This document shows positions 21,295 through 59,743 of a DNA stretch of 64,000 bases, in pieces. The translations under genes were made by a program, and so were the position numbers. A model generated the notes under the pieces. It saw only the letters and a program-made list of their open reading frames with translations, was not told the DNA's origin and made no database searches. Location: contig JBGAJA010000006.1 of the NCBI GenBank assembly GCA_044225175.1, forward strand, positions 65,049-129,048, read 5' to 3'. Every line of letters begins with the position of its first letter. Position 1 is the first letter of the stretch. The stretch is from Candidatus Omnitrophota bacterium. GTDB lineage: Bacteria; Omnitrophota; Gorgyraeia; Zapsychrales; Fredricksoniimonadaceae.

Positions 21295-21297
21295 GAA

Positions 21298-23037: not shown

Positions 23038-23042
23038 TGATA

Positions 23043-36848: not shown

Positions 36849-36956
36849 AAACAAGGCGCTCAGTATAAAGCTCAAGCCTTTCCCTGTCAATGGTTCGACT
36901 GGAACATCCTAAACAGGTTAATTGGCATTAAGTATTTATATATTGTATACTTCTGC

Positions 36957-39900
36957 ATGCGCAAAAATTTAAGAAGAGTTTTATCCCTAGGGGTTTTATT
37001 TGCCTTTTTGATCACTAGTCTGGGCCCAATTCCAAGTGCTCACGCTCAGGAGCTTGCCTTACCAAAACCTGGGGTGATGGTTCATTTAAGCCCTGCGGTC
37101 AATCCACCCATCCTAAAGGGTTTGAAGGTTCATACGGATAATCCTTTTAGATTTGACTTTATCCTGGATAAAGGTGATTCCGAGCAAGGCTCAACCAATG
37201 CAGGATTGAAAGAAGAATCCAGCCGCTTAATTAAGTATTTTCTAGCTAGTCTAACTATCCCTGAGAAAGATCTCTGGGTGAACTTATCTCCCTACGAAAA
37301 AGATCGAATCATCCCCAATAGCTTTGGTTTAACCGAAATGGGTCGCGATCTCCTAGCTCAGGATTATATCCTCAAACAGATCACCGCATCTTTAATCTAT
37401 CCGGAAGATGAAATAGGAAAGAAGTTCTGGAAGAGAATTTATGAAGAAGCTCAAGTTAGGTATGGGACAACAAATATCCCAGTAAACACTTTTAACAAAG
37501 TTTGGATCGTCCCACAGAAAGCTGTGGTGTATGAGAATGCCAAGGCTGGTACGGCTTATGTTGTTGAATCCAGGTTGAAGGTGATGTTGGAAGAGGATTA
37601 TTTGGCGATGGGTAAAAATATCGTAGGGACGACCCCCCGTGGGCGCCCTTTACCAGGGCAGGTACAGGGGCCTGCCCCTACGGAAACAAATAAAATCGGA
37701 TCCCAAATCATCCACGAAATCGTCATCCCCGAATTAACCAAAGAAATCAACGAAGGCTCAAATTTTGTCCAACTTAGGCAGGTTTATAGTTCCTTGATTC
37801 TAGCTACATGGTACAAGAAAAAGATCAAAGATTCGATATTGGCACGAATTTATGCGGATAAGAATAAGATAGCAGGAGTGGGATATTCTTCCAGTGTCAT
37901 GGCGAGCGAACGTAGTGAGCGCGGCAATCTTTCTAAAAAGATTGCTTCGTCGCCTTTGGCTCCTCGCAATGACACGGAGGAAATCTACCAACGCTACCTC
38001 CAAGCCTTCAAAAGAGGCGCTTACAACTATATCAAAGTAGAAATTGACCCTGTTACTCAGCAATCCATTTCCAGGAAGTATTTTTCTGGTGGAATGCTTA
38101 TAAAACCTGATATTGAAACCACTCAAATTCTTCCTTCGATGTCTCCTGTCCAGTCCTCTGTTGTTGTTTCTGCTGATTTAGCAATGAGCTCAGACCTTAC
38201 ATCAGAGTTAGCTGGTAAAGAGCCTGGAGGGGAAGATCGTGGAAGAAAGAGTCTAGAAGCGCTTAGAGCAATTAAATATGAAGATATTAATGTTAATCAA
38301 GGAACAGGGTTAAAGGAATTGGTTAGGGAGGCGCTGGGTGTAAGTAGTAAAAGAAAGGCTTCTGGGGTAAAGGTATCTGCAGAAGAATATGTAGGCAAGA
38401 TGCAGCGAGGTGAGAGGATTATTGATCAAGTGCCGCAAGCGGTAGATACGATCATGGGTAGGATAGATTTGGGTAAGTTAAATGACATTAATGCCTATGA
38501 TAAGAAAACTATTGTGGCTGATTTATTAAGAGATTTATGGATAGCGGATTTATTGGGGTTGTTAAATGTGGATTTGATATCAACTTTTGGATTTTCGAGT
38601 TTTACGACAATGTTAGTAAAGAAAAGAATTCTTACTAAAGTTTCTTTAAGACCGACAGTCAGATTTGAAGATTATTGGGTTATTAGGAATCGTATCATTC
38701 AGGGTGAGATTATAAATAATCAAATTTATAAAGGTAATGAGGGACAGATTAAATGGGTTAGGCAGATGAAGGACGATGGAAAGATTAATTCGACCAATTT
38801 AAGACATATTTACAATATCTTGGAAGAAGAGTGGGTAAAGCTACTTAATTGGCAAGGAATGAGTATGCCTCTGGAGGAGGCCGAGAAAGTCAGAGTGTTA
38901 GTTGAAGCATTAGTTAAGGATAAAGAACAAATGAAGCTTTATCGAGGCAACGTCGGTCAGATTAAATGGGTGAGAGAAATGAAGAAAGCAAACAGAATTA
39001 CCTCAACCAATCTGGGAAGTATTTATAGCGTGTTGGAAAACGAGTGGATCAAGACAGAAGTCCTTAATTGGCAATACATCAATATGCCTTTAGAAGAAGC
39101 AGAGAAAGTTAGAACTTTAATTGAAGCATTAATTCAGGATCGAGATCAGATGAGACGTTATCAAGGCAATGCTGGTCAGATCAGATGGGCAAGGCAAATG
39201 AAGGATGAAGAGAAGATTGTCTCAACACATCTAGGAAATATTTATAGTGTGTTAGATGAAGAATGGATCAAGACAGAAAACCTTAATTGGCAAAAGATAA
39301 ACATGTCTTTAGAGGAGGCTGAGAAGGTTAGAGTGTTAATTGAAGCATTGGTTCAGGATCCTAACCAAGTAAGGCTTTATCAAGGTAATGCTGGCCAGAT
39401 CAGATGGATAAGACAAATGAATGATGAACGGAAGATTGCCTCAACACATCCAGGAAATATTTATACTGTGTTGGATGAAGAATGGATCGAGACAGAAAAT
39501 CTTAATTGGCAAAAGATGAATATGCCTTTAGAAGAGGCAGAGAAAGTCAGAGTATTAGTGGAAGCATTGGTTCAGGATCCAGATCAGATGAGACGGTATC
39601 AAGGTAATGCCGGCCAGATCAGATGGGTAAGGCAAATGAAGGATGAGGGAAAGATTGCCTCAACACATCTAGGGCATATTTATAGTGCATTTGATGAAGA
39701 ATGGGTCAATACAGAAAATCTTAATTGGGAAAAGATGAATATGCCTTTAGAAGAGGCAGAGAAAGTCAGAAAGTTAATTGAAGCGTTAGTTCAGGATCGA
39801 GATCAGATGAGGCGGTATCAAGGCAATGCCGGCCAAATCAGATGGGTAAGGCAAATGAAGGATGAGGGGAAGATCAACGCTACTAATTTAGCTAGTATTT

Positions 39901-42179
39901 ATAGTGTTTTGGAAGGTGAATGGGTAAAGCCGGATGTGCTTAATTGGAAAAAGATGGATATGCCTCTGGAGGAAGCAGAGAAGATAAGAGAGATGATTCA
40001 AAAATTAGTTCAAGACCCTAAACAGGTGGAGTTATATAAAAATAATGCTGGGCAGATTAAATGGGTAAGACAGATGAAGGATGGCGGCAAGATTGCCTCA
40101 ACTCACTTGTCTAATATTTATAGTGTCTTGGAAGAAGAGTGGATAAAGCCTGATGAGCTTAATTGGCAACAGATGAATATGTCTTTAAAGGAAGCGGAGA
40201 AGATAAGAGAGATGATTCAAAAATTAGTTCAAGACCCTAAACAGGTGGAGTTGTATAAAAATAATCCTGGCCAGATCAGATGGGCAAGGCAAATGAAGGA
40301 TGAGGGTAAGATTAATTCGACTTATTTAGGCAATGTTTATAGTGTCTTAGATAAAGAATGGGTAAATGCGGATGTGCTTAATTGGCAAAATATACACATG
40401 TTATTAAAAGAAGCAGAGGCCCAGCAGCTATCTCAAGAACCTCCTGATCAAGCTATGTTAAGCGCTGTCCCAGATGTCGTGGCATTATTAGAAGAAAAAC
40501 AACGGCAAGGCATGATAGATCAATATTTAGGCTCCATGATGCATTATGCAAAGTTTGGAGATTTAGCTATTTATTATTTGATACGTGATGTTCGCTCTAA
40601 AACTGGTTTTTTAAAACCAATTTCTCCGGCAACGTTTGCTGCCAGTATGAATACTCTTCTTGCGCCTCAACTTAAAGAGATTGGCTTTACTTTTAAGAAA
40701 GGATCTTTAACTGAAGAGGTATATTCGGGATTGGAACAATGGTTAAAAAAAATCTCCTTCGATCAACTCTCTTCCTATGGAAGTATGGCAGGATTAATTC
40801 GTCTAATCAAACAGATCGAAGCAGATAAAGATGGTGATTTAAGTAAATTAAAAGGGGTCCATCTAAGTCAATTAACTGCATTGCTTCATGCATCGAGGAA
40901 TGTTGAGCTTATATCAGGTCATGCTATACAGAAGTGGGAGCTTCCATATCTAACTATGAGTATGGAAAAGTTTCAGGCTCTAGAAGCTTGGGCTGAAAAA
41001 ACAAAGGAATTATCTAATTATGGAAACATGAAAGGTTTGGTTTTGCTGGTTCAAGAAATTATGTCTGGGAAAGATGATGATTTAAAGAAATTGCAAGATG
41101 CGGATTTGTATGATCTTACGATGGTGCTTCATTCATCCGAAAATATTAAAGCTTTAACAGCTCGAACCATTCCAGGTTGGAATATGCCTCGGGTTAATAT
41201 GTCGGTCCGGCAATTTTATGCTATTCAACTTTGGCTTAAGAAGCAAGACGCATACAAATATAATAAGATGTCAGGTTTGATTTTATTGGTTGGAGAAATT
41301 GAAAGTGGAAAAGAACTCGATCTCAAAGTTCTAAAAGGAGTTAACCTCAGTTCATTGACTTCATTGCTTTCTTCAAGGGAGAATATGGAAGCTTTGACAG
41401 GTCAGTTCATGAAAGATTGGGATATTCCAAATATTAAAATGACCATAAAACAATTTACTGCTTTGCGTCTTTGGGCAAGAGAACAAGAAAGCAGATTAGC
41501 TATATATGGAAGTATGCAGGGATTGATTACTTTAATCGATGAAATCAATAAAGGTCAAGATCCACATTTGAAGGTTTTGCAAGGGATCAATTTGGGATAC
41601 TTAACTCACCTTCTTCATTTTTCTGAGAATATTGAAGCGTTAACCGGACAATATATTGAAAGTTGGGATATGCCGTTTGTCAATATGTCCATGAAACAGT
41701 TTCAAGCGCTTTATCAATGGATTATAAAACAGAAATCTAATTTAGAGCAATATGGAAGTGAGAAAGGTTTGGAAGAATTGCTTAAGAAAATTGAGGCAGG
41801 GGAAGCTGAGTTGAGTCCATTGAAAGGGATCAATCTAAAACCTCTAACATTATTTCTTTCTTCCCCTAAAAATATTAGAGATTTATCAGGCCGAGATATT
41901 GCAGGTTGGAATATGCCTATTTTGAAAACTACATATGCGGAAGCTCTTAGAGATTTTGGAATTAAAGATCAGGCGATGTCAAAATCTACCCCAGGTGGTA
42001 TTGATTTAACCACTGCTTCAATGAATTTGGAAACTGAAACTCAAAATAGTAACGAAGAATTTAAATTCAATATTGACCCCGCAATGCTCAAACAACTTCA
42101 AAACGCTCCAGGTTTTTATCCCATCATCATGAATATCACACGTTTACAAGATTTGAAAACTTTCCTGGTAAGTCCATAA
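36957..42179 (+). CDS. Giant secreted repeat protein (1740 aa). It has a signal peptide, a conserved ~330-aa N-terminal module shared with the ORF at 49678, 8x 73-aa repeats, 5x ~80-aa repeats, and a conserved C-terminal module.
   Basis: A single uninterrupted ORF with signal peptide …SLGPIPSAHA. Its N-terminal and C-terminal (…GGIDLTTASMNLE…GFYPIIMNITRL…) regions align with those of the 49678-53736 protein. The internal repeats were read directly. No known family was recognised. Confidence 0.7.
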   Translation: MRKNLRRVLSLGVLFAFLITSLGPIPSAHAQELALPKPGVMVHLSPAVNPPILKGLKVHTDNPFRFDFILDKGDSEQGSTNAGLKEESSRLIKYFLASLTIPEKDLWVNLSPYEKDRIIPNSFGLTEMGRDLLAQDYILKQITASLIYPEDEIGKKFWKRIYEEAQVRYGTTNIPVNTFNKVWIVPQKAVVYENAKAGTAYVVESRLKVMLEEDYLAMGKNIVGTTPRGRPLPGQVQGPAPTETNKIGSQIIHEIVIPELTKEINEGSNFVQLRQVYSSLILATWYKKKIKDSILARIYADKNKIAGVGYSSSVMASERSERGNLSKKIASSPLAPRNDTEEIYQRYLQAFKRGAYNYIKVEIDPVTQQSISRKYFSGGMLIKPDIETTQILPSMSPVQSSVVVSADLAMSSDLTSELAGKEPGGEDRGRKSLEALRAIKYEDINVNQGTGLKELVREALGVSSKRKASGVKVSAEEYVGKMQRGERIIDQVPQAVDTIMGRIDLGKLNDINAYDKKTIVADLLRDLWIADLLGLLNVDLISTFGFSSFTTMLVKKRILTKVSLRPTVRFEDYWVIRNRIIQGEIINNQIYKGNEGQIKWVRQMKDDGKINSTNLRHIYNILEEEWVKLLNWQGMSMPLEEAEKVRVLVEALVKDKEQMKLYRGNVGQIKWVREMKKANRITSTNLGSIYSVLENEWIKTEVLNWQYINMPLEEAEKVRTLIEALIQDRDQMRRYQGNAGQIRWARQMKDEEKIVSTHLGNIYSVLDEEWIKTENLNWQKINMSLEEAEKVRVLIEALVQDPNQVRLYQGNAGQIRWIRQMNDERKIASTHPGNIYTVLDEEWIETENLNWQKMNMPLEEAEKVRVLVEALVQDPDQMRRYQGNAGQIRWVRQMKDEGKIASTHLGHIYSAFDEEWVNTENLNWEKMNMPLEEAEKVRKLIEALVQDRDQMRRYQGNAGQIRWVRQMKDEGKINATNLASIYSVLEGEWVKPDVLNWKKMDMPLEEAEKIREMIQKLVQDPKQVELYKNNAGQIKWVRQMKDGGKIASTHLSNIYSVLEEEWIKPDELNWQQMNMSLKEAEKIREMIQKLVQDPKQVELYKNNPGQIRWARQMKDEGKINSTYLGNVYSVLDKEWVNADVLNWQNIHMLLKEAEAQQLSQEPPDQAMLSAVPDVVALLEEKQRQGMIDQYLGSMMHYAKFGDLAIYYLIRDVRSKTGFLKPISPATFAASMNTLLAPQLKEIGFTFKKGSLTEEVYSGLEQWLKKISFDQLSSYGSMAGLIRLIKQIEADKDGDLSKLKGVHLSQLTALLHASRNVELISGHAIQKWELPYLTMSMEKFQALEAWAEKTKELSNYGNMKGLVLLVQEIMSGKDDDLKKLQDADLYDLTMVLHSSENIKALTARTIPGWNMPRVNMSVRQFYAIQLWLKKQDAYKYNKMSGLILLVGEIESGKELDLKVLKGVNLSSLTSLLSSRENMEALTGQFMKDWDIPNIKMTIKQFTALRLWAREQESRLAIYGSMQGLITLIDEINKGQDPHLKVLQGINLGYLTHLLHFSENIEALTGQYIESWDMPFVNMSMKQFQALYQWIIKQKSNLEQYGSEKGLEELLKKIEAGEAELSPLKGINLKPLTLFLSSPKNIRDLSGRDIAGWNMPILKTTYAEALRDFGIKDQAMSKSTPGGIDLTTASMNLETETQNSNEEFKFNIDPAMLKQLQNAPGFYPIIMNITRLQDLKTFLVSP
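38727..40478 (+). repeat. Eight in-frame tandem repeats (one 213-bp unit, then seven 219-bp units) inside the giant gene. Units 3-6 are nearly identical at the DNA level.
   Basis: Unit consensus: YQGNAGQIRWVRQMKDEGKIASTHLGNIYSVLDEEWIKTENLNWQKMNMPLEEAEKVRVLIEALVQDPDQMRR. Unit starts (TAT codons) are at 38727, 38940, 39159, 39378, 39597, 39816, 40035 and 40254. Confidence 0.85.
40776..41985 (+). repeat. Five in-frame, more diverged tandem repeats of ~240-246 bp (~80 aa) inside the giant gene
   Basis: Unit pattern: YGSM.GL..L..EI..G.D.DLK.L.G.NL..LT.LL.S.ENI.ALTG..I..W.MP.…M…QF.AL..W. Unit starts are near 40776, 41019, 41259, 41505 and 41751. Confidence 0.7.
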
Positions 42180-42239
42180 ACAAAACTTCACATTTAAAAT
42201 CTGTTGAAGATTTTTCCAAGATATATATAATGCACAGCT

Positions 42240-44228
42240 ATGAATAAAACTACTTCTATTGATAACTTCAAAGAAGCACCGAAAGCCTCCTCACCTCAAG
42301 AAAGTCCCAAAGAAAATTTAAAAGTTTTATCGCATCCCTTTATCACAGAACATGATATCTACCTTTTCAAAGAAGGAAATCACTTTAGACTTTACGAGAA
42401 ATTAGGCGCTCATCAGATCGTTGTGGATGGGAAGCCGGGTGTTCATTTTGCCGTTTGGGCCCCGAATGCTAAGAAGGTTTCTGTTATTGGGAACTTCAAT
42501 GGCTGGAATCGTTCTTCTCATTCTTTAAACCCCCGCTGGGATCATTCTGGGATTTGGGAAGGTTTTGTTCCGGGAATCTCTAAGGGTGAAATCTACAAAT
42601 ATTTCATTGTTTCTAGTCAGGACTATTATCAAGTTGAGAAACAGGATCCTTTTGCCATTTATAATGAAGTAGCTCCCAACACAGCTTCTATAGTATGGGA
42701 TTTAGATTATGAATGGAAGGATCAGCCATGGATGGAGAGCCGTTACAAGAAGAATAGTTTAAATGCTCCTATGTCCATCTACGAGATGCATTTAGGTTCT
42801 TGGAAGAAGGTTGTTGAAGATAATGGTCGTTTCTTGACGTACCGTGAAATGGCAGATCAATTACCTGAATATCTTAAATACATGGGGTATACCCACGTCG
42901 AATTTTTGCCAGTTATGGAGCATCCTTTCTATGGTTCCTGGGGATATCAAACTTTAGGCTATTTTTCAACCACCAGTCGCTACGGTACGCCGCAAGATTT
43001 TATGCATTTGGTCGACTGCCTGCATAAAAATAATATTGGTGTCATTCTAGATTGGGTTCCATCTCACTTTCCGACGGATGAACATGGTTTATCTTACTTT
43101 GATGGAACACATTTATTTGAACATACAGATCCTAGAAAAGGCTATCACCCAGATTGGAAGAGTTCCATTTTTAATTATGGACGTAATGAAGTTCGTGAGT
43201 TTTTAATTTCTTCTGCCATGTTTTGGATGGAGAAATTTCATATTGATGGACTTCGGGTAGATGCTGTTGCCTCCATGTTGTATTTGGATTATTCCCGCCA
43301 ACAGGGCGAGTGGATTCCAAATGAATATGGCGGGCGTGAGAATTTAGATGCCATGTTCTTTATTCGTAAATTAAATGAAACAATTTATTCTAACTTTCCT
43401 GACACACAAATGATTGCAGAGGAATCTACCGCATGGCAAGGTGTTTCAAGGCCAAATTATCTAGGCGGATTGGGATTTGGGATCAAATGGAATATGGGAT
43501 GGATGCACGATACGCTCGTTTACATGAGTAAAGATCCTATCTATCGTAAATACCATCAGAATGATCTAACATTCTCATTTTTATACGCCTACACAGAAAA
43601 TTTTATGTTGTCTTTATCCCATGATGAAGTGACTCATGGAAAAGGGTCCTTGATTTCTAAAATGCCTGGTGATTTTTGGCAGAAATTTGCTAATCTTCGA
43701 CTACTAATGGGCTATATGTTTGCCCATCCAGGTAAGAAGTTGAATTTTATGGGAACTGAGTTTGCCCAATGGGAAGATTGGAATCATGATCATTCTCTGC
43801 AATGGCATTTATTGAACTATGAGCCTCATAAAGGAATTCTTCAATTGGTCAAAGACTTAAATCACTTGTATCGTTCAGAGCCAGCTCTCTATGAATGTGA
43901 TTTTACTCCAGATGGTTTTGAATGGATTGATTTCAGTGATTACCAAAAAAGTATCATTTGCTTCATGAGAAAGTCTTTTGCTAATAATAGCCAGATCATT
44001 GCTGTTTGTAATTTTACACCCCAAACTTGGCATAATTATTCAATCGGTGTTCCGTATGCAGGAATATGGAGAGAAGTTTTAAACACTGATGCATCCATAT
44101 ATGGAGGATCCAATCAAGGTAATGGAGGAGCTCTTCAGGCCCAGAATTATTCCAGCCATGGAAGACCTTTTTCATTATCATTAACTATTCCTCCACTAAG
44201 CATTTTGTTTTTAAAAAATGTTAAATAA
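42240..44228 (+). CDS. glgB: 1,4-alpha-glucan branching enzyme (GH13)
   Basis: Includes the motif YMGYTHVEFLPVMEHPFYGSWGYQTLGYF. Confidence 0.9.
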   Translation: MNKTTSIDNFKEAPKASSPQESPKENLKVLSHPFITEHDIYLFKEGNHFRLYEKLGAHQIVVDGKPGVHFAVWAPNAKKVSVIGNFNGWNRSSHSLNPRWDHSGIWEGFVPGISKGEIYKYFIVSSQDYYQVEKQDPFAIYNEVAPNTASIVWDLDYEWKDQPWMESRYKKNSLNAPMSIYEMHLGSWKKVVEDNGRFLTYREMADQLPEYLKYMGYTHVEFLPVMEHPFYGSWGYQTLGYFSTTSRYGTPQDFMHLVDCLHKNNIGVILDWVPSHFPTDEHGLSYFDGTHLFEHTDPRKGYHPDWKSSIFNYGRNEVREFLISSAMFWMEKFHIDGLRVDAVASMLYLDYSRQQGEWIPNEYGGRENLDAMFFIRKLNETIYSNFPDTQMIAEESTAWQGVSRPNYLGGLGFGIKWNMGWMHDTLVYMSKDPIYRKYHQNDLTFSFLYAYTENFMLSLSHDEVTHGKGSLISKMPGDFWQKFANLRLLMGYMFAHPGKKLNFMGTEFAQWEDWNHDHSLQWHLLNYEPHKGILQLVKDLNHLYRSEPALYECDFTPDGFEWIDFSDYQKSIICFMRKSFANNSQIIAVCNFTPQTWHNYSIGVPYAGIWREVLNTDASIYGGSNQGNGGALQAQNYSSHGRPFSLSLTIPPLSILFLKNVK

Positions 44229-44247
44229 TTATTATCAAGGAGAGGTT

Positions 44248-44544: not shown

Positions 44545-44557
44545 TTAGAAAGTATTT

Positions 44558-47011
44558 ATGAATCGTTTCGTTTGCATCCATGGTCATTTCTATCAGCCGC
44601 CTCGAGAAAATCCTTGGTTGAATGAAGTTGAACTTCAAGAATCTGCTCATCCTTATCATGATTGGAATGAGCGCATTAATGCTGAGTGTTATGCGCGTAA
44701 TGCCTTTTCACGCATCCTAGATGATAAGCAAAGAATCATTGATATCGTCAATAATTACTCCAAAATTAGTTTTAATTTTGGTCCTACTTTATTTTCCTGG
44801 TTAGAGCAAAAAGCCCCTCAAACATATGAAGCTATTTTAGAAGCTGATCGCAATAGTCAAAAGAATTTCTCTGGTCATGGCAGTGCTTTAGCGCAGGTTT
44901 ATAACCATATGATTATGCCCTTAGCTAATACGAGGGATAAACGCACCCAAATATTATGGGGAATTAAAGATTTTGAATATCGATTCAATCGAAAGCCTGA
45001 AGGGATGTGGCTTGGCGAAACGGCAGTTGATTTAGAAACTCTTGATATTATGGCTGAGTATGATGTGAAATTTACAATCTTAGCGCCTCATCAAGGGAAG
45101 ATGATCAGGAAAATTAAGGATGTCCAATGGCAGGACCTTCAAGGGCAAAAGGTGGATTATCGTCGAGCTTATCTTTGTCGATTACCTTCGGGAAGATCTA
45201 TCAGCATTTTCTTTTATGAAGGATCTATTGCTCAAGAAGTTGCTTTTAATGGGCTTTTAAATAATGGAGGAAATTTTGCTCATCGCCTGATGTCTAATTT
45301 TGAAAATCATAATCATGAACCTCAATTAGTGAATATTGCGACTGATGGGGAGACATATGGGCATCATCATAAATTTGGCGATATGGCTTTAGCCTACTGT
45401 TTACAGTCAATGGAATCTCAGGAACACACTCAATTAACGATTTATGGCGAATATTTAGAGAAATTTCCTCCTACATATGAAGTCATGATTGAAGAGAATT
45501 CATCATGGAGTTGTTTTCATGGTATTGAAAGATGGAGATCTAATTGCGGTTGTCATACCGGCGGGCAGCCAGGATGGAATCAGCATTGGCGCAAACCTTT
45601 AAGGGAAGCATTGGATTGGCTGCGAGATGAGCTGGCTAAAGTTTACGAAGAGGAGATTAGTACTTTTGCGCCAGAAGCCTGGATTCTTAGAAATCAATAT
45701 ATTGAGTTAATCCTGGATCGTACTCCTGAGAATACTCAGAAATTCATTGATAATCATATTTCTAAACCTTTAAATGAAGAAGAACGCATCAAACTATTTA
45801 AGCTTCTGGAAATGCAATACAACGCTCTTTTGATGTATACCTCTTGCGGCTGGTTTTTTGCAGATATTTCTGGGATTGAGACCATACAAATTCTTAAATA
45901 TGCTGCGCGCGCTATTCAATTGGCCCATGAAGCAACATCGGTTGATTTAGAAGAAGGGTTTATAAGAAGATTGGAAGAATCGCGTAGTAATGTGCCGGAA
46001 TACAAAAATGGGGCCCATGTTTATAAGACTTTTGTCAAACCTTCGATCGTCGATCTTCCTAGAGTATCAGCCCATTATGCCGTAAGCTCTTTGTTTGAAC
46101 ATTATCCTCCTAAGATTCAAATGTATTGTTACACCATTGAAACTGAATTTTATGAACTCAAAGAGGCTGGACGTTTACGTTTGGCTTTGGGGTATGGCTG
46201 GGTTTCTTCGAATATTACAGGGGAGAAAGCCCATGTGCGATTTGCTGTATTGCATTTGGGGGACCATAATTTCATTGGCGGGATGGATTATCAGAAAAAT
46301 GATGATTTTACTCAGATTTATAATGTATTGTCTGAAGCTTTTTTAGAGAGTAATGTCTCTGAGATCATTCATTTGATCAACATTTACTTTGATGCAAGAA
46401 ATTATTCTTTGTGGGACTTATTCAAGCAGGAACAAGAAACAATATTGAACCATGTTTTACATTCCACCATTGAAGATATGGAATATTCTTTTCGTCAGAT
46501 TTATGAATACCACTATCCTTTAATGCAGATCAAAAATGATACTAGGCTTCCTTTGCCAAGGATGTTAACTACCGTCGTAGAATTCATTCTGACTCGAGAC
46601 TTGGTTGCATTGATAGAGCAGGAAAACTTGCAGGTCGATAAGATGAAGGGGCTTGTTGAGCAAATGAAGAGGTGGGATTTTAAAAGGGATCAAGCTAACT
46701 TTGGATTCCTGGCTAGTAAACGGATGAATGTGTTTATGGAAAAACTTCTGGATCACCCAGATAATATTGAACTTCTTGAGAATGTTACGGTGACTTTTGA
46801 ATTATTAAACCAATTAAACTTCGATTTAGATTTATGGAAAGCACAGAATATTTATTTTTCTTTGGTACTTAAGATTTATCCTGAAATATTAAGCCAAACG
46901 CCAAAAGATGCTTTGGCATTACGTTGGATTGCGTGGATTGAACGTTTGGGAGATGTTTTACAGGTAACCTATAATTCTTCTTCCACTGTTAAAGGACCAG
47001 CTTATATATGA
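44558..47011 (+). CDS. Glycoside hydrolase family 57 protein with C-terminal DUF3536-like extension
   Basis: N-terminal …CIHGHFYQPPRENPW… is the hallmark GH57 start, followed by …DGETYGHHH…. The protein is 817 aa. Confidence 0.8.
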   Translation: MNRFVCIHGHFYQPPRENPWLNEVELQESAHPYHDWNERINAECYARNAFSRILDDKQRIIDIVNNYSKISFNFGPTLFSWLEQKAPQTYEAILEADRNSQKNFSGHGSALAQVYNHMIMPLANTRDKRTQILWGIKDFEYRFNRKPEGMWLGETAVDLETLDIMAEYDVKFTILAPHQGKMIRKIKDVQWQDLQGQKVDYRRAYLCRLPSGRSISIFFYEGSIAQEVAFNGLLNNGGNFAHRLMSNFENHNHEPQLVNIATDGETYGHHHKFGDMALAYCLQSMESQEHTQLTIYGEYLEKFPPTYEVMIEENSSWSCFHGIERWRSNCGCHTGGQPGWNQHWRKPLREALDWLRDELAKVYEEEISTFAPEAWILRNQYIELILDRTPENTQKFIDNHISKPLNEEERIKLFKLLEMQYNALLMYTSCGWFFADISGIETIQILKYAARAIQLAHEATSVDLEEGFIRRLEESRSNVPEYKNGAHVYKTFVKPSIVDLPRVSAHYAVSSLFEHYPPKIQMYCYTIETEFYELKEAGRLRLALGYGWVSSNITGEKAHVRFAVLHLGDHNFIGGMDYQKNDDFTQIYNVLSEAFLESNVSEIIHLINIYFDARNYSLWDLFKQEQETILNHVLHSTIEDMEYSFRQIYEYHYPLMQIKNDTRLPLPRMLTTVVEFILTRDLVALIEQENLQVDKMKGLVEQMKRWDFKRDQANFGFLASKRMNVFMEKLLDHPDNIELLENVTVTFELLNQLNFDLDLWKAQNIYFSLVLKIYPEILSQTPKDALALRWIAWIERLGDVLQVTYNSSSTVKGPAYI

Positions 47012-48507
47012 GTCACAGAGCAAGCGGCATACTTCTTCATATCAGTTGTTTACCATCTAATTATGGAATTGGAGATTTTGGTCCCCATGCTTATGCCTTT
47101 ATAGATTTTCTTAAGAATTCTGGCCAAACCTATTGGCAAATGCTTCCACTTAATCCGACCGATGGGATTAATGGTCATTCTCCTTATAGCTGTTTTTCCG
47201 CTTTTGCTGGAAATTCTTTATTGATTAGCCCTGATTTCTTAGTCATTGATGGTTTTCTTAAGCCAGGTGATTTAAAAAACAATCCAGACTTTGAAAAAGA
47301 TCAAATTGATTATCCTAAAGTAATTCCTTTCAAGCACAAACTTCTGGATTTAGCTTTTAAGAATTTCCAAGCGCAGGAGAGGAAAGCTGATTATGATGAT
47401 TTTCTGGTACAAAATAAATCTTGGTTAATTGATTTTGCTATTTTTTCCGCTGCTAAATCTAAATATTCGGGTCTTTGTTGGGAGCAATGGCCAGCTACTT
47501 TGAAGGACCGTAATTCACGTACTTTGGCTACTTTTGCTAAAAAACATTCGGACGAAATTGAGCTGACCAAATTCACCCAATATGTATTTTATCGTCAATG
47601 GGGGCGATTAAAGGCTTATGCTAATAGTAAGGGGATCAGCATTATTGGCGATATTCCCATTTATGTGAATTATGATAGTGTGGATGTATGGTGTCATAGG
47701 TCTTATTTCAAATTGGATAAAAAAGGCGAATTGAAATTTATCAGCGGCTGTCCGCCCGATTATTTTTCTAAAACTGGCCAACGCTGGGGAAATCCAGTCT
47801 ATGATTGGGTAAATATTAAGAAAAATAAATATTCATGGTGGGTCAAGCGTATTGCTCATAATTTGTCGATGTTTGATTATTTACGTATTGATCATTTTCG
47901 TGGTTTTTGTTCTTTTTGGCAGATTCCAGCTCATGAAAAGCTCGCTGTCTTTGGACAGTGGATCAAAGGTCCAGGAGAAGAATTCTTTAATTATTTACTT
48001 AGACATTTTAAATATCTGCCTCTTATTGCAGAAGATTTAGGTGAGGTCAGTAATGAAGTTTTGCTTTTAATGCGTCGATTTCAGTTTCCTGGAATGAGAG
48101 TATTGTTATTTGCTTTTACAGGGGAACCTAAAAGAAATCCACATGTACCAGCTAACTATCCGGAAAATTCTGTAGCCTATACGGGAACCCACGATAATAA
48201 TACTGTCCAAGGCTGGTACTATCAGGAAGCCAAGGAGCATGAGAGAGCCAATATTAAAATTGTTCTGGGAGTCAAGCCTGTTCCTCGACAATTACATTGG
48301 CAAATGATAGAAGCACTCTTTAAATCGAAATCGAATACTGTGATTGTTCCTTTACAAGATGTTTTTGGCCTGGATGCTTCTTCACGAATGAATACGCCGG
48401 CAACTAAATCTCATAATTGGAGATGGCGTTTTGAAGCAGGAGCATTAACAGCCTCCTTATCTGCTAAACTTTTAAGAATTACTCGTCGAACAAAGAGGAG
48501 CGAATAA
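47008..48507 (+). CDS. malQ: 4-alpha-glucanotransferase (amylomaltase, GH77)
   Basis: ASGILLHISCLPSNYGIGDFG at the N-terminus, plus …GDIPIYV… and …LRIDHFRGF…. Confidence 0.85.
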   Translation: MSHRASGILLHISCLPSNYGIGDFGPHAYAFIDFLKNSGQTYWQMLPLNPTDGINGHSPYSCFSAFAGNSLLISPDFLVIDGFLKPGDLKNNPDFEKDQIDYPKVIPFKHKLLDLAFKNFQAQERKADYDDFLVQNKSWLIDFAIFSAAKSKYSGLCWEQWPATLKDRNSRTLATFAKKHSDEIELTKFTQYVFYRQWGRLKAYANSKGISIIGDIPIYVNYDSVDVWCHRSYFKLDKKGELKFISGCPPDYFSKTGQRWGNPVYDWVNIKKNKYSWWVKRIAHNLSMFDYLRIDHFRGFCSFWQIPAHEKLAVFGQWIKGPGEEFFNYLLRHFKYLPLIAEDLGEVSNEVLLLMRRFQFPGMRVLLFAFTGEPKRNPHVPANYPENSVAYTGTHDNNTVQGWYYQEAKEHERANIKIVLGVKPVPRQLHWQMIEALFKSKSNTVIVPLQDVFGLDASSRMNTPATKSHNWRWRFEAGALTASLSAKLLRITRRTKRSE

Positions 48508-49128
48508 ATGAATTTATCAAAACAAACATTAACAGTGATTATTATTGTGTGTGTAATCGCTCTTGTGGTTGGTCTTAAAGGTTTGCATTCAAAATCCCCA
48601 GTCAATGTGGATCCAGTGGTAGCCAGGAGCTTAGGATCTGATAAAGCCAGAGTCAATATTGTTGAATTTATTGATTTTGAGTGTCCCGCTTGTGCTCAGG
48701 GATCAAAGATTCTAAAAGACTATGTGGCTAAATATCCCGACCAAATCTATTTGCAAGTAAAATATTATCCTTTGATGAACGTTCATCATCATGCTCTTCA
48801 GGTAGCTGCCTATGGTGAATGTGTGGCTCGACAAGGGAAGTTTTGGCAGTTCTTTGAGCCCTTAATGGTGCAGCAGGCTCAATGGTCCCAATTAGTCAAT
48901 GCCCAAGGTATATTTGACCAAATTGCTCAGGCTGCTGGAGTTAACATGGCTCAATTAAAAACGTGTGTTTCTTCGGATGATGTATCTACAAAGATTATGG
49001 CTGAAAAGAATATTGGCCGCTCGCTGGGAGTGCAGTCAACACCCACATATTTTATTAATACTAAGATGGTTGTAGGAACAAAGTCTTTGAAAGAAGAATT
49101 AGATACGTATTTTCCTAAGGCAAAGTAG
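48508..49128 (+). CDS. DsbA-family thiol:disulfide oxidoreductase (membrane-anchored)
   Basis: An N-terminal TM anchor and a thioredoxin-fold active site FECPACAQ. The start immediately follows the malQ stop. Confidence 0.7.
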   Translation: MNLSKQTLTVIIIVCVIALVVGLKGLHSKSPVNVDPVVARSLGSDKARVNIVEFIDFECPACAQGSKILKDYVAKYPDQIYLQVKYYPLMNVHHHALQVAAYGECVARQGKFWQFFEPLMVQQAQWSQLVNAQGIFDQIAQAAGVNMAQLKTCVSSDDVSTKIMAEKNIGRSLGVQSTPTYFINTKMVVGTKSLKEELDTYFPKAK

Positions 49129-49162
49129 AGACGGGGCATGCCTCGTCTGTACAAAATCAAAT

Positions 49163-49597
49163 ATGGCCGCTCTATTACGAATCTTCATAGGCTCAATTTT
49201 CTTAGTTTCTGGTTTAGAGAAATTAATAAGTCCTTATCAGAATTTTATGTATGTTATACAAGGCTATGAACTTTTTCCTTCATGGATGGAAAAACTTATT
49301 GCCGTAACTGTTCCATGGGTTGAAGTGTTTGTTGGAATCTTTTTGGTTGTGGGATTGTGGATTAATTTATCTTTAAAAGGAGCTTTATTATTCTTTGGCT
49401 GCTTTATCATAATTGTAGGACAGGCTCTTGTAAGGCGTTTGCCCATTGATCAATGTGGCTGTTTCGGTGAAAGTATTCATATTCCACCTCAATATATCCT
49501 CGTTTTTGACAGTTTTATGCTTTTAACTGTGTTTTGGCTTCTTCGAAACATGACTAAAGCTCAGCGGTTTAGCTTAGATAAGAAAACGTTTTCTTAA
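49163..49597 (+). CDS. MauE/DoxX-family membrane protein
   Basis: Four TM helices and a conserved CGCFG motif (…DQCGCFGES…), characteristic of the MauE-like family. These are frequently paired with DsbA/thioredoxin-like partners. Confidence 0.5.
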   Translation: MAALLRIFIGSIFLVSGLEKLISPYQNFMYVIQGYELFPSWMEKLIAVTVPWVEVFVGIFLVVGLWINLSLKGALLFFGCFIIIVGQALVRRLPIDQCGCFGESIHIPPQYILVFDSFMLLTVFWLLRNMTKAQRFSLDKKTFS

Positions 49598-49677
49598 ACT
49601 ATCCCTCCAGACCTTGACATTCCCTTTGCACATGGCATACTTTTATAGAAGATAAAAATTGTGGATGAGGAATTTAA

Positions 49678-52600
49678 ATGAAGCAAAATACTTTTAACCC
49701 CAAAAAAGTAGCATATCAAAACCTGCGTAAAACAATTACAAGCGTTGTTCTCACAGCTTTTTTTTGTACTTCCTTACATAATCCATCTTATGCACAATCT
49801 GTATCGGGCAATATGCCTTGGATGCCAAAGCCAGGGGTAATTGTCCGTTTAAGCCCTGAATTTAAACCAGCACATTTACTGGGAATGACCATTCATGGGG
49901 ACAATGCTTTAAAGTTTGATTTTATTGTTCATCGTGGTGATAACCCATTAACTGAAGATCAGAAAAAAGAAGAATATAATAAGCTTATTAAATATTTTCT
50001 AGCTTCTTTGACTATTCCTGATGAAAACCAATGGGTCAACCTTTCGCCTTATGAAAAGAACCGCATTATTAAGGAAGACTTTGGAACAACAGAAATGGGA
50101 CGTGATCTTTTAGCCCAGGATTACGTGTTAAAACAAATCACATCCAGTCTTATTTATCCTGAAGATAATCTAGGAAAGAAGTTTTGGGATAAGGTGTATG
50201 ACCGTGCTTGGAAAGAATATGGCACAACAAATGTCCCTGTAAATACCTTTAATAAGGTTTGGATTATTCCTGATGAAGCAGTTGTTTATGAAAGCGGTAA
50301 TACTGCTTATGTGCTTCGTAATCATTTGAAGGTCATGTTGGAAGAAGATTATGTCTCTTTAGATAAACATAGTGGAATTACAAATAATAAACCTACTGTT
50401 AGCAATACCAATAAAGCACATAGCCTGGCTTCACAAATTATTAAGGACATTGTTCTCCCTGAGTTAGAAAGGGAAGTTAATGAAGGGCAGAATTTTGCTA
50501 ATCTTCGTCAGATTTATAGCGGGATGATTTTGGCTACATGGTACAAGAAAGCATTGAAAGAAAGTTTATTAGGACAAATTTATGTTAATCGATCTAAGGT
50601 CAAAGGAGTTGAACAGAACCCTCAAAATAATCAAGTCATTTATCAGCAATACTTAAAAGCCTTTAAGAAAGGTGTATTTAACTACATTAAAGAAGATGTA
50701 GACAAATACACCAAGGAGAGTATTCCTCGTAAATATTTCTCTGGTGGAACAATCAACGATTATGCCCAGGTCACAAAATTCTTAAAAAAAGGAGATTCTT
50801 TGCCAGAGAACATTGATTTTGCTTCTCTTGCAACAGGGATTGCTGACCTTGCGACTGTGGTAATTGATGGTTCAGGTAATAATGCAAGTTTTAATGGTCG
50901 CGATTCAGTAGTGGAAGTTCTTAGGTTATTACAAGGAGGAGGCCTTTCTAATGCAGAAAGAAATGGGTGGCAGGCGTTGGGAAGGTTGGCGGGAACAGAA
51001 GCTTTGGAAGTCAAAAGAAGAATTATGGATGCTGAGTTAATCGTGTATGACAGAGAAGGAAGGGCTATTAGAAGAACATTCTTTAACGGAAACTCTTTGA
51101 TAGACCAAGTTCAAATTTTATTTAAGGAAGGTCAACAGGTTCTTTTTCTTGATGAATCTTCTGAAGTATCAAGTAGCAGTCAAATGGTTGCTGTCCCTTC
51201 GGTCAGGGGAAATTCAAAAGGAATTATCCTTTCTGAGACATCTAGAGCCCCTGAAATAGCGCGTAAATTAGGAGCTCTGTTTTCTTCATTGATCTACATA
51301 ACAGAAACTAAACCTACAATAACGTATCTTGGTTTGTATCCTTCATTAGATAGAGGTTCCAAAGATTTTCAAAAAGGGCCAAATGCCATTGATAAAAATA
51401 ATAAAGATAAGACTACCTCTGCGTATAAACTTAATGGGTTTACAACTCTACCGGTAGTTCTGAGTCAAAGTATGAATGAAAGGGTATTAGAAAGAAGCAT
51501 AGGTACTTTTAGTAATCGAAAAAGAGGAATGGTAGGTGTTGCTGTTGAGTCGTTTGAAAAAATACCTAATGGGTTACTTGCACTTTCAAATGAAAGATTT
51601 TATTTAGTCTCTATTTATGTGCAAGTTCCTTCTAGTATCCCTCACGTGGATACTGGCAGAAATTCTGCGATAACTGTTAACTTTTATATGACAAAATCTG
51701 AGCTAGATCAATTTACGAGTTTGATTCAACAGTCACCTGAAGCATTGATTTATGCGTTTCAAGAAAATTCAGACGTAAATCTTAGTAATATTTTTAAAGG
51801 GATGATGGGAGATGCGCTGAAAGAGGGTATAGGGTTCTATGGTCCTACTAATTTAGGTCAATATCCGTTGGAAGGTCTTATATCTTCTGACGAGTTAAGG
51901 TCTATTATTTCAGCTGATGCGGCATTGATTGCGGGGAAAGATAAGGCCCTTTTAGAAAAAGTATTCCTAGGAACTCTTCAGATGTTGAGTAAATCTGGAC
52001 TATTGGGAGATGAGGTAGCACGAGAAAGAGTATATGAACGTTTATTTCCTCATTTAAAACCTTTGAGAGGTATGATTTCTACTGCATTGACAAACAAACC
52101 TACTATTGAGAGTGTACAAGAAATACCAGAATTTGTGGCTGCAGTTAACAATTTATTTACACCAGAGCAGGTAGCGCGTGATTTTACTAGTTTTTCAAAA
52201 GATGCACGAGATATTAGTAATCTAAAACAAGTTTTTATTAATGATTTCAATCAATTCTTAAGATTAATCAAAAACTTTTCTGAGACTAGAGTTGTATTAA
52301 GTGCTAATAAAATCATTCTTTCAGATGTTCTTTCGGATTTATATGATCTCTCCAATAAAATAATCCAGAATAAGACTTCTGTTGTAGAGTTGCAAAAAGC
52401 AGTTGAGGCTCTTCTTTTAAAACAACCGGAAGCCGCTCGACCATCCTTAAGGGAGATTTTATTAAAAGAAGTAAAAAGAATGCATAGTCAATTGAAGCTA
52501 AAAGAAGTCGTGTTGGAGAAAAGCAATCAAGTATTAGCAGATTTAAAAGCAAGAGGGGTGATTGGTGAGCTAGATGCAGTTAATGCAAGGGAGAAATTGA

Positions 52601-53736
52601 TAAATCTAAGAGTACTTGTTGAACAGAATCCTAAAGTGGGAGCTATTGCACAGATCGGAGAACTCAAGAATCGAATCGCTGCATTATTTAATGGAGATGG
52701 TAATGTTTTGCCTGGAGTGTCTAAAGCTGAGATTGCCGCTCTTCGGACATTTTTAGAAGAGGATTTAAGTAGTTATTTAGAGTTAATTACAGCTTTTTCT
52801 AAAACGCGAGAAGCTTTAAAAGGTGATCCAGATTCTTGGGATGCTATTATCTTTGATTTATACGCTATTGATAGGCATGATTTGGAGAGAATCTTTGCTA
52901 AGGTGTTATCAAAAGTTCCTGAAATTATTAAACTAATAGGAACTCCAAATCAAGAGGCAGGGAGAGAGGCTTTAACTGCTGATTTAAATGCTATCAAAGA
53001 TAATGCCATGTCATCGATAAATAGGGTAAACACACCTGGAGTTAATCGATTTGGGGATTCAATAGTTCCTCCCGTGGAAAGAAGTTCAAACACAGGAGCA
53101 TACGAGAGAGGGACTCTTCCTCAAGATCAAAGGGGGGCATTTCGACTACCATCTCAACAAGAAGACCCACAGCCTCTACCTCGTCAAGAAGATAGTACTA
53201 CGATAACTCTATCTCAAGGTGCTACATTTAATATCTTTCCTGATGAAGCAAAGTTTAACCGATTGGTTATCTCAAATTCTTCTGATTCTAAAATAATAGA
53301 GTTCACTCTGGGGGAGATTCAGAATCTTAAAGAGGGGAATTATAATGGATTTACTGTTACTAGAAATGAAGGAGAGTTGCCTAAAGTAGGAGAAATAACT
53401 GCACCGTGGAAACTCCAAGAAATGTCGAGACGGTCTGTGACAATAACTGCCACTAGAGATTTAAGAATTACAACTTTTACGAATCCAGCCATGCTTAATA
53501 GTACATCGGATAAACAAGATAAACTTGGTGGTATCGATTTAAATTCAGCCAATTTGAATTTACAAATTAAACGTGATGGTAAAGGTGTTCCATTACCTTT
53601 GAATCAACAGGACATGGCGCAACTCATGCAAATTCAAGGCTTTATTCCCAAAATCATTGAAATCACGCCTGCTGCCGGTCTTCCAATCTTCAGTGAACTC
53701 AAACAAAAGCTAAAACCTGCAAGTAGCTTATCGTAA
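49678..53736 (+). CDS. Giant secreted protein (1352 aa) that is a paralog of the 36957 gene. The N- and C-terminal modules are shared; the ~900-aa middle is non-repetitive and unrelated.
   Basis: Signal peptide …NPSYAQS. The N-terminal region aligns with the first giant protein. The C-terminus …GGIDLNSANLNL…GFIPKIIEITP… matches the first protein's C-terminus. Confidence 0.65.
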   Translation: MKQNTFNPKKVAYQNLRKTITSVVLTAFFCTSLHNPSYAQSVSGNMPWMPKPGVIVRLSPEFKPAHLLGMTIHGDNALKFDFIVHRGDNPLTEDQKKEEYNKLIKYFLASLTIPDENQWVNLSPYEKNRIIKEDFGTTEMGRDLLAQDYVLKQITSSLIYPEDNLGKKFWDKVYDRAWKEYGTTNVPVNTFNKVWIIPDEAVVYESGNTAYVLRNHLKVMLEEDYVSLDKHSGITNNKPTVSNTNKAHSLASQIIKDIVLPELEREVNEGQNFANLRQIYSGMILATWYKKALKESLLGQIYVNRSKVKGVEQNPQNNQVIYQQYLKAFKKGVFNYIKEDVDKYTKESIPRKYFSGGTINDYAQVTKFLKKGDSLPENIDFASLATGIADLATVVIDGSGNNASFNGRDSVVEVLRLLQGGGLSNAERNGWQALGRLAGTEALEVKRRIMDAELIVYDREGRAIRRTFFNGNSLIDQVQILFKEGQQVLFLDESSEVSSSSQMVAVPSVRGNSKGIILSETSRAPEIARKLGALFSSLIYITETKPTITYLGLYPSLDRGSKDFQKGPNAIDKNNKDKTTSAYKLNGFTTLPVVLSQSMNERVLERSIGTFSNRKRGMVGVAVESFEKIPNGLLALSNERFYLVSIYVQVPSSIPHVDTGRNSAITVNFYMTKSELDQFTSLIQQSPEALIYAFQENSDVNLSNIFKGMMGDALKEGIGFYGPTNLGQYPLEGLISSDELRSIISADAALIAGKDKALLEKVFLGTLQMLSKSGLLGDEVARERVYERLFPHLKPLRGMISTALTNKPTIESVQEIPEFVAAVNNLFTPEQVARDFTSFSKDARDISNLKQVFINDFNQFLRLIKNFSETRVVLSANKIILSDVLSDLYDLSNKIIQNKTSVVELQKAVEALLLKQPEAARPSLREILLKEVKRMHSQLKLKEVVLEKSNQVLADLKARGVIGELDAVNAREKLINLRVLVEQNPKVGAIAQIGELKNRIAALFNGDGNVLPGVSKAEIAALRTFLEEDLSSYLELITAFSKTREALKGDPDSWDAIIFDLYAIDRHDLERIFAKVLSKVPEIIKLIGTPNQEAGREALTADLNAIKDNAMSSINRVNTPGVNRFGDSIVPPVERSSNTGAYERGTLPQDQRGAFRLPSQQEDPQPLPRQEDSTTITLSQGATFNIFPDEAKFNRLVISNSSDSKIIEFTLGEIQNLKEGNYNGFTVTRNEGELPKVGEITAPWKLQEMSRRSVTITATRDLRITTFTNPAMLNSTSDKQDKLGGIDLNSANLNLQIKRDGKGVPLPLNQQDMAQLMQIQGFIPKIIEITPAAGLPIFSELKQKLKPASSLS

Positions 53737-55826: not shown

Positions 55827-55855
55827 TGGTTTTATAGTGCCATTAATACTTAATT

Positions 55856-57574: not shown

Positions 57575-57586
57575 CATATTTAACTT

Positions 57587-59290: not shown

Positions 59291-59300
59291 TGGAGGGAAA

Positions 59301-59726: not shown

Positions 59727-59743
59727 TAAATTGAGGTCTAAAT

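Follow-up and report, generated by a model that had tools for sequence, protein, structure and literature searches.

Two Large Predicted Secreted Proteins of an Omnitrophota Bacterium and Their Family, with Conserved Ends and Exchangeable Middles

What might be the role of two large proteins that begin and end alike when everything between their ends differs? The question is raised by a 64,000-nucleotide stretch of DNA from a Candidatus Omnitrophota bacterium (contig JBGAJA010000006.1, positions 65,049 to 129,048; hereafter the window, in whose numbering the positions are given), which encodes the proteins P1 and P2. Each carries a conserved N-terminal module (the head) and a conserved C-terminal module (the tail) around its middle. 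P1 and P2 are two paralogs of a very large, apparently undescribed family, which seems to be confined to the candidate phylum Omnitrophota. At about an even chance, head and tail form a common handle for export, sorting, or anchoring that carries exchangeable cargo, possibly effectors. This reading ranks above a surface polymer, a functional N module, a toxin-immunity system, and an artifact, each of which was given less weight. Omnitrophota are diderm, widespread, mostly uncultured, and mostly ultra-small bacteria that are thought to be host dependent or predatory.

Two Paralogs with Common Ends

An earlier note, made from the DNA letters, had described two giant secreted paralogs at this locus. 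The listing of open reading frames (ORFs), translation, and BLASTP bear out two large ORFs that begin with signal peptides, which were judged by eye and also from a family-wide cleavage-site logo, A-Q-A↓Q-[ED]-F-x-L-P-x-P-G (the arrow marks the predicted cut). The word "giant" is relative, as the family spans 438 to >3,400 amino acids (aa) with a median of ∼1,200. The features of P1 are as follows.

36957..42179, + strand: P1, 1740 aa, with signal peptide, N module, two repeat arrays, and C module
36957..37046, + strand: Sec-type signal peptide (aa 1-30; MRKNLRR, 16 hydrophobic residues, AHA↓Q; predicted cleavage after aa 30)
37059..38093, + strand: N module (aa 35-379, LPKPG ... RKYFSGG)
38175..38186, + strand: D-L-A-M junction motif (aa 407-410), 28 aa past the N module
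38724..40445, + strand: repeat array A (aa 590-1163), eight tandem copies of 73 aa
40446..40457, + strand: D-Q-A-M motif (aa 1164-1167), exactly between array A and the stretch leading into array B
40698..41918, + strand: repeat array B (aa 1248-1654), five copies of ∼81 aa, 37-48% identical
41967..41978, + strand: D-Q-A-M motif (aa 1671-1674), ending 5 residues short of the GGIDL motif
41979..42176, + strand: C module (aa 1675-1740), GGIDL...DPAML.QLQNAPGF.P.I.NI...L..FL

Those of P2 are as follows.

49678..53736, + strand: P2, 1352 aa, with signal peptide, N module, orphan cargo, and C module
49678..49794, + strand: Sec-type signal peptide (aa 1-39; basic n-region, 15 hydrophobic residues, SYA↓Q; predicted cleavage after aa 39)
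49822..50748, + strand: N module (aa 49-357, MPKPG ... RKYFSGG)
50749..53511, + strand: cargo (aa 358-1278), orphan sequence
52999-53010, + strand: D-N-A-M motif (aa 1108-1111)
53512..53733, + strand: C module (aa 1279-1352), GGIDLNSANLNLQ...GFIPKIIEITP...

The N-terminal match between P1 and P2 extends over 513 columns at 45% identity (E 1e-111, BLASTP), and the N module alone is 52.6% identical over 350 aa (E 1.5e-115, tblastn); every motif string quoted in the earlier note is present in the alignment. The N module of P2 belongs to a more divergent subtype, with a median identity of 59% to other members. The pairwise match of the C termini is weak (29% identity, E 3e-4, BLASTP). A profile of the C module, built from 122 other family members and then run on the ORFs of the window, scored 86.5 bits in P1 (aa 1675-1737) and 56.2 bits in P2 (aa 1279-1347), so the common C module proposed earlier stands. 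P1 and P2 are the only ORFs in the window with either module. Identical sequences are present in the public library as P0121 (P1) and P0384 (P2).

The middles of the two proteins are unrelated to each other. That of P1 is indeed built from two families of tandem repeats. The units of array A are 53-68% identical to each other, and the array is also evident in the DNA, with a period of 219, 6.9 copies, and 79% matches at 38844-40361 (TRF). No relative of repeat A was found in a Pfam scan or in a PDB search with its profile, and repeat B, among all sampled relatives, is common only to one other locus (L038). Matches of P1 to Rrn6_HB and L21e were rejected, as they lie within the repeats or are driven by them and leave no credible stretch; likewise, PHROGs gave only weak matches inside the P1 repeats and no passing stretch. 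The middle of P2 has no homolog except itself among 5.8 billion proteins and matches no Pfam or NCBIfam family. It had been called nonrepetitive, which is nearly but not strictly right: one weak two-copy duplication (26% identity, E 1e-4) pairs aa ∼781-900 with 985-1062 (nt 52020-52380 with 52630-52865) in its helical part. Further features of the P2 cargo are N-P-A-M (aa 1269) and, at ∼aa 1110-1165, a stretch rich in proline and glutamine.

A Large Family with Fixed Borders

When 1.84 billion cluster representatives were searched exhaustively with the P1 head (HMMER), 7,984 of them proved to bear the head at E ≤ 1e-3, and 6,045 still did so at a cutoff of 1e-30. The head starts within approximately the first 120 residues in each of the best 150 of the 7,984 matches. 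The best 143 representatives (P0121-P0263), 627 to 3,414 aa long, were analyzed in detail. A GGI[DN]x tail lies 54-91 residues before the C terminus in 122 of them, so that ∼85% carry both head and tail. Internal transmembrane (TM)-like segments are absent in 89 of the 143, as they are in P1 and P2. Operationally, the family is defined by a signal peptide followed within ∼5-10 residues by LPxPG...KYFSGG, by GGIDL...PVIINIQP...FLG starting 54-91 residues from the C terminus, and by a mature protein that is nearly cysteine free; P1 and P2 have all three. The consensus of the tail is GGIDLTpaNmNLQTQN.G..IKFH.DPAML.QLQNAPGFVPVIINIQP...L..FLG.

The source names of the matches are all Omnitrophica or Omnitrophota, except for one fragment labeled Minisyncoccia. 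A scan of one genome per species found at least 587 loci, of which the best 80 (L001-L080) were examined. All 80 lie in Omnitrophota metagenome-assembled genomes (MAGs) or in bins titled "uncultured Planctomycetales," which are taken to be placeholder names. Several loci per genome are seen (eight loci with at least 10 genes in JABDGZ01, six loci in JADFYF01), and some genomes hold at least 8-10 scattered family copies. Full-text and in-paper term searches (Omnitrophota biology, giant proteins, "GGIDL") returned no description of the family from an incomplete body of literature, which does not show that none exists.

When both profiles were run over 1.07 Mb of these loci, the head was detected in 87 ORFs, the tail in 67, and the two together in 59. 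With few exceptions, an ORF with a single module is either truncated at the end of a contig or one part of a gene split by a stop or frameshift. Adjacent head and tail ORFs separated by a single in-frame stop or frameshift were seen at L006 (∼4692), L069 (∼889), L009 (∼12868), and L080 (∼11221). An orphan tail of 113 bits (L082, 5884-6219) follows a response-regulator ORF downstream of a complete family gene, and a 370-aa ORF at L081 (523-1632) has a weak tail (24 bits) and no head; these headless tails look like fragments of broken genes or like remnants, though they could belong to rare proteins that have only a tail. Many database matches are fragments that end just past the head. A word-indexed homolog search returns only proteins of approximately the query length (≤608 aa for a 347-aa query; 58-129 aa for the 66-aa tail profile), so that contig-end fragments dominate its matches and full-length members stay hidden. 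A natural minimal member, P0080, consists of a signal peptide, the head, a 15-aa linker, and the tail in 438 aa; it occurs on five contigs, beside another member.

Since family genes evidently break assemblies, with fragments ending past the head and MAG copies split by stops and frameshifts, one might suspect that the paralogy of P1 and P2 stems from duplication of a contig end, from chimeric assembly, or from miscalling of an ORF. We give such an artifact a negligible probability. The heads of P1 and P2 are 53% identical in protein and only ∼68% identical in DNA, and because of this low DNA identity the pair is an old paralogy and not an assembly artifact. In addition, 7.5 kb with ordinary genes separate the two, and both are uninterrupted ORFs with the complete layout of thousands of independent sequences. 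The duplicated contig end that the earlier note had named as a possible refutation is thus not borne out.

The heads vary little. Their median identity is 76% among paralogs of one genome and 74% across genomes. Recent gene conversion was considered as the source of this conservation and rejected: the heads of the same-genome pair L016/L023 share 91% of their residues, whereas the identity of their DNA is only 76%. This difference points to purifying selection on the heads. Among 155 non-redundant members, heads have a median identity of 74% and tails one of 57%, and head and tail co-diverge (Mantel r 0.57; 0 of 500 permutations above 0.195).

The cargo behaves differently. Of 11,935 pairs, 105 showed similarity between their cargoes, and not one of the 97 whose heads are ≥85% identical did so, in a library clustered at 50% identity, from which close full-length relatives are removed and in which the rarity of common cargo is overstated. 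The many near-identical heads on unrelated cargo are not affected by this clustering. In close-head pairs, similarity ends at the residue after ...RKYFSGG and restarts 0-7 residues from GGID. Further members with different middles, which the earlier note had proposed to look for, thus exist in large numbers, and its picture of conserved export or anchor modules with exchangeable cargo is upheld by the exact borders and by the ∼85% of members with both head and tail.

A layout emerges from these comparisons: a Sec signal peptide, an N module of ∼330 aa, an exchangeable cargo of ∼15 to 3,000 aa, and a C module of ∼60 aa. Novelty in the cargo would arise by replacement between two fixed Gly-Gly borders.

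Neither module could be assigned to a known family, as had been reported from the sequence. Scans of P1 and P2 found no credible match of head or tail in Pfam, NCBIfam, PADLOC, or PHROGs, and PDB sequence searches with each protein and with profiles of head, tail, and repeat A gave nothing below E 0.2. The AlphaFold2 model of the head (pLDDT 80.6, pTM 0.70) is an α/β structure with three β-hairpins, nine helices, and two variable, low-confidence loops. The modeled head showed no similarity to solved folds, including any enzyme or binding fold and any solved β-helix, and no fold match was found in BFVD. Kinship between head and tail was rejected, as hhalign pairs only the SGG/GGIDL motif (1.9% probability). 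In the tail, the longest hydrophobic run is ∼7 residues (PVIINI), and a hydropathy scan of P1 and P2 detected nothing TM-like there.

The strength of head conservation bears on an alternative in which the N module itself does the work of an envelope-resident family, as an enzyme or a ligand-binding domain in the periplasm or at the outer leaflet, and the middle only tunes, targets, or regulates it. An identity of ∼75% among thousands of old paralogs is above what is usual for pure secretion domains. Invariance extends to some 37 head columns, among them many polar ones that cluster in WVNLSPYEK, TEMGRDLL..DY.LKQ, and NKVWI, and the most conserved stretch falls in a loop region of the AlphaFold2 model, where it may resemble a binding or active site. 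The resemblance of the head to no enzyme or binding fold speaks against this alternative, which also leaves unexplained the conserved far-end module of nearly every member, the swapping of up to 3,000 aa of cargo between fixed borders, and the avoidance of cysteine across the whole protein, cargo included. It is considered unlikely.

The pairing of head and tail admits a further explanation, to which we assign the same low probability: members join by docking of a tail into the next member's head, and a mixed fiber or layer displays the middles, with the minimal member as a structural subunit. Strand complementation in chaperone-usher pili provides a model for such docking. Head and tail nearly always occur together and are conserved across the paralogs of a genome, as mutual compatibility would require, and a cargo-less protein of head and tail exists in P0080. 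Their co-divergence could reflect contact between subunits but is equally explained by common descent of the two ends of one gene. That the tail has no confident fold alone in the models would be expected of a segment that folds on binding, and the absence of cysteine matches S-layer-type proteins, which are typically cysteine free. On the other hand, the only model with both head and tail, that of P0080, gave no confident packing, and a surface lattice would be an odd place for enzyme cargoes that depend on nucleotides.

Export, Cargo, and Gene Neighborhood

Can the handle be linked to a route out of the cell? Cysteine makes up 0.10% of the residues of the family compared to 1.22% in the 36 other proteins of the window and 1.10% in 296 neighboring ORFs, an ∼11-fold depletion; 40% of family ORFs are fully cysteine free compared to 5% of neighboring ORFs. 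P1 has no cysteine in 1740 aa, and the single cysteine of P2 (Cys30) lies inside the signal peptide. Scarcity of cysteine is a known trait of autotransporter passengers and S-layer proteins. Because avoidance of cysteine is typical of such proteins, it suggests that the family crosses the outer membrane unfolded or lives outside the cell. Export itself is indicated because the A-x-A site is conserved and the n-region follows the positive-inside pattern.

A second compositional signature is the motif D-x-A-M, which occurs 2.5 times per 1,000 residues compared to 0.28 expected from composition and 0.39 in the other proteins of the window (∼9-fold enrichment). Of its copies, 233 lie ≤60 residues past the head, 102 lie ≤30 residues before the tail, and 201 are inside the cargo; the tail itself includes one (DPAML). 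It is a speculation that the copies at the junctions are processing or linker sites. The size of the family, its restriction to Omnitrophota, its depletion of cysteine, and this motif were absent from the earlier note.

The cargo of 77 full-length members was scanned with Pfam. Recognizable domains are present in a minority, and the majority of the cargo is uncharacterized, the P1 repeats and the P2 middle included. Among the domains found are GGDEF (three members), protein kinases, PP2C, several methyltransferases, HAD, HATPase_c, and uridine kinase, together with helix-turn-helix, the C-terminal domain (CTD) of the RNA polymerase α subunit, HEAT and pentapeptide repeats, one subtilase, and one peptidase M23. 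HD and HAD domains were also seen on fragments. The known cargo domains are mostly nucleotide- or S-adenosylmethionine (SAM)-dependent enzymes, or repeats. In the 77 members, no nuclease, deaminase, ADP-ribosyltransferase, or pore-forming toxin domain and no adhesin-type domain was found. The recognizable cargoes, mainly signaling-type enzymes and repeats, look more like an effector repertoire than like the adhesins or polymorphic toxins to which the family had been likened from the sequence.

This result bears directly on the proposal of a polymorphic toxin or contact-dependent competition system, with a trafficking head, a toxin as the variable part, and a neighboring immunity gene. The architecture has something of such a system, being modular with a conserved trafficking-like head, a hypervariable remainder, and many paralogs per genome, and a peptidase M23 and a subtilase occur in one member each. 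Here, however, the variable part is internal and is followed by a conserved tail, classical toxin domains are absent from the scanned members, no match to defense-system models was obtained with PADLOC, and no small immunity-type gene is conserved downstream in the 80 loci; in the window, the next genes downstream are glgB (P1) and that of a DCC1 oxidoreductase (P2). The probability of this proposal is put very low.

In the reading of head and tail as a handle, the proteins would be exported unfolded via Sec and cleaved after A-x-A. As the pattern of conservation suggests, the invariant head and tail would then be recognized by cell machinery as a bipartite handle, either for transport past the periplasm or for fixing at the surface. 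The middle, two helical-looking repeat arrays in P1 and an orphan set of domains in P2, would be the working part. Depletion of cysteine and the presence of cargoes that need ATP, GTP, or SAM suggest that this part would work beyond the producing cell, either at its surface or in a host or prey cell attached to it: enzymes that depend on GTP, ATP, or SAM are unable to work in the periplasm and therefore would either act in the cytoplasm of another cell or not be exported. Molecules are reported to pass into the prey of the only Omnitrophota predator studied (PMC13153191).

Taken further, the handle may define an undescribed sorting or secretion route specific to Omnitrophota, whose cargoes are delivered onto or into host or prey as the main effector repertoire. 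We consider this extended version possible but doubtful. The proproteins might then be cut at the Gly-Gly borders or at D-x-A-M sites, and the signaling cargoes might be aimed at prokaryotic cyclic di-GMP synthesis, phosphorylation, and transcription. 

Several observations weigh against the handle. About 15% of the full-length representatives have no recognizable tail. The AlphaFold2 model of the minimal member P0080 reached a pLDDT of 61, with the tail below 50 and no confident packing of head against tail. Most cargo has no known domain, so that the word "effector" rests on a minority of members, and the clustering of the library makes common cargo appear rarer than it is. The signal peptide might stay uncleaved as an inner-membrane anchor, and depletion of cysteine would be compatible with every location beyond the cytoplasm and does not single out passage across the outer membrane. 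When the flanking ORFs of the 80 loci were clustered, no gene was conserved beside the family members, and no partner machinery for an export handle was found in these flanks. The largest cluster of flanking ORFs may be the antisense ORF of the family gene itself. Genes of the type IV pilus or type II secretion system (T2SS) kind, a cluster of which lies just downstream of P2 (below), were no recurrent neighbor in the same loci, and the closeness of that cluster to P2 is probably a coincidence.

The start sites of the two genes are preceded by candidate promoters.

36922..36951, + strand: promoter-like site before P1, TTGGCA-18-TATACT, ending 5 nt ahead of the ATG (consensus scan)
49614..49641, + strand: promoter-like site before P2, TTGACA-16-(TG)CATACT, 36 nt upstream of the start, with GAGGA 7 nt before the ATG (consensus match only)

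Both are matches of a consensus scan whose total in the region is no more than in shuffled sequences. From the position of its site, the P1 mRNA looks leaderless. Across the family, −10 elements resembling (C/T)ATACTT lie ≤22 nt from the ATG in 23 of 71 genes compared to 11 of 429 control ORFs, and Shine-Dalgarno-like motifs are rarer (9 of 71 family genes compared to 98 of 429).

The genes around P1 and P2 are those of an ordinary chromosome. On the upstream side of P1 are the genes of pyruvate dehydrogenase E1/E2/E3 on the opposite strand and a tRNA-Leu. The 7.5 kb between P1 and P2 hold genes of glycogen metabolism and of thiol-disulfide chemistry and encode GlgB, a small winged-helix protein, a GH57 enzyme, MalQ, DsbA, and a MauE/DoxX protein, and on the downstream side of P2 are the DCC1 oxidoreductase, FtsW/RodA, and the type IV pilus/T2SS-like genes. 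LptF/LptG, ExbB, TonB, and FeoAB are encoded elsewhere in the window; the presence of LptF/LptG, ExbB, and TonB therefore marks the DNA as chromosome of a bacterium with an outer membrane.

Four further observations concern this neighborhood. Genes of thiol-disulfide chemistry lie on both sides of P2 (DsbA and MauE/DoxX at 48508-49597, a DCC1-like oxidoreductase at 53802-54194), and mature P2 is cysteine free; this is probably a coincidence, though a curious one. The type IV pilus/T2SS-like cluster (55377-60961) consists of an MshEN-only ORF, two tandem GspE/PilB-type ATPases, and a GspF/PilC protein. A PMT_2-type membrane glycosyltransferase is encoded at 29464-30873 (− strand), 6 kb upstream of P1, and glycosyltransferases of this type, 40% identical to the window copy, lie directly upstream of family genes in L010 (8379-9806) and L027 (8384-9811), too few for a link. 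Lastly, three tandem paralogs at 18286-24800 (− strand) are ∼40% identical over ∼590 aa, and their common part has no Pfam family.

18286-21294, − strand: tandem paralog 1, with an additional N-terminal Acyl_transf_3 domain
21298-23037, − strand: tandem paralog 2
23043-24800, − strand: tandem paralog 3

Relation to Known Systems

At least ∼8,000 sequence clusters with an invariant head and tail and nearly unlimited middles are what one would expect if a single means of delivery or display served all members while its payload diversified. If the handle is real, the rule LPxPG...KYFSGG, then cargo, then GGIDL... would list the candidate secreted effectors and surface proteins of any Omnitrophota genome. 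Two new domains, one of them with a modeled structure without a detectable known fold, would be added to the catalog of bacterial sorting signals, and a large pool of uncharacterized cargo domains would be opened. Processing at the borders and the final location of the proteins become testable in the Velamenicoccus enrichment and in metaproteomes.

Within the phylum, the closest comparison is with the giant proteins of Omnitrophota ("Archaeovorin" and "Dockerin" types), which, as reported in two preprints, are 10,000 to 147,000 aa long, mostly TM rich, and equipped with SecA-like, C39, or S8 domains (West-Roberts et al., 2023, bioRxiv 10.1101/2023.11.21.568195; Nielsen and Lui, 2026, bioRxiv 10.64898/2026.06.07.730766). 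As described there, they too are predicted to be exported or membrane associated, are modular and repetitive, and are discussed for predation or host attachment. The preprints report conserved T2SS-like loci beside the giant genes, whereas the head/tail family, at 0.4-3.4 kaa, has many members without internal TM segments and no conserved neighbor. Term searches of the preprints gave no mention of the head or the tail.

Among secretion systems, TpsA/CdiA proteins (type Vb, two-partner secretion [TPS]) are similar in having a Sec signal followed by a conserved N module of 250-330 aa and a long, variable, often repetitive remainder, in being poor in cysteine, and in having multiple paralogs with swappable functional parts. 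The TPS domain, however, is a right-handed β-helix (PF05860), whereas the head of the Omnitrophota family has no Pfam match at E ≤ 1 and is modeled as α/β with nine helices. TpsA has no conserved C-terminal module, and tpsA lies beside the gene of TpsB (Omp85 family), whereas within the 80 loci no neighbor is conserved.

Cargo of the type IX secretion system (T9SS), a feature of Bacteroidota and relatives, likewise combines a Sec signal and diverse cargo with a small conserved C-terminal domain in many paralogs, which in the T9SS is an outer-membrane sorting signal. In P1 and P2, no match to the T9SS CTD models (type A/B) was found in NCBIfam or Pfam at E ≤ 1. The tail of ∼60 aa, with its motifs GGIDL, DPAML, and PVIINIQP, is unlike the T9SS CTD, and T9SS cargo has no common N-terminal module. 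Classical autotransporters (type Va) are Sec dependent and have a large, cysteine-poor passenger, and their C-terminal part, needed for export, can be likened to the tail; it is a β-barrel of 250-300 aa (PF03797), whereas the tail is ∼60 aa, gives no match, and leaves no region long enough for a barrel. The CTERM signals processed by sortase, exosortase, archaeosortase, or rhombosortase (LPXTG, PEP-CTERM, GlyGly-CTERM, and similar) consist of a short motif, a TM helix, and a basic end at the extreme C terminus, whereas the tails of P1 and P2 have no TM-like segment and no NCBIfam CTERM match. The head is therefore no TPS domain, and the tail is no T9SS CTD, autotransporter barrel, or LPXTG/CTERM signal; the earlier note had named signals of these kinds for comparison.

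Substrates of type I secretion (RTX) have no N-terminal signal, carry an uncleaved one at the C terminus, and usually have GGxGxD repeats; P1 and P2 have Sec-type signals and no match to RTX or hemolysin-type calcium-binding repeats. For anti-phage or phage proteins, PADLOC gave no match, PHROGs weak matches only, and BFVD no fold match. The polymorphic toxins (Rhs, CdiA-CT, MafB) share with the Omnitrophota family their conserved trafficking parts, sharply bounded exchanged parts, and many paralogs. Their variable part is C-terminal, whereas that of the family lies between two conserved modules, and in place of known toxins with an immunity gene, the Omnitrophota cargo consists of signaling-type enzymes, repeats, and orphan domains, with no candidate immunity gene seen. 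The combination of conserved trafficking parts with a swappable payload is thus already known from TpsA/CdiA, T9SS cargo, autotransporters, and polymorphic toxins, and the Omnitrophota family presents the same combination without the defining features of any of them that were tested.

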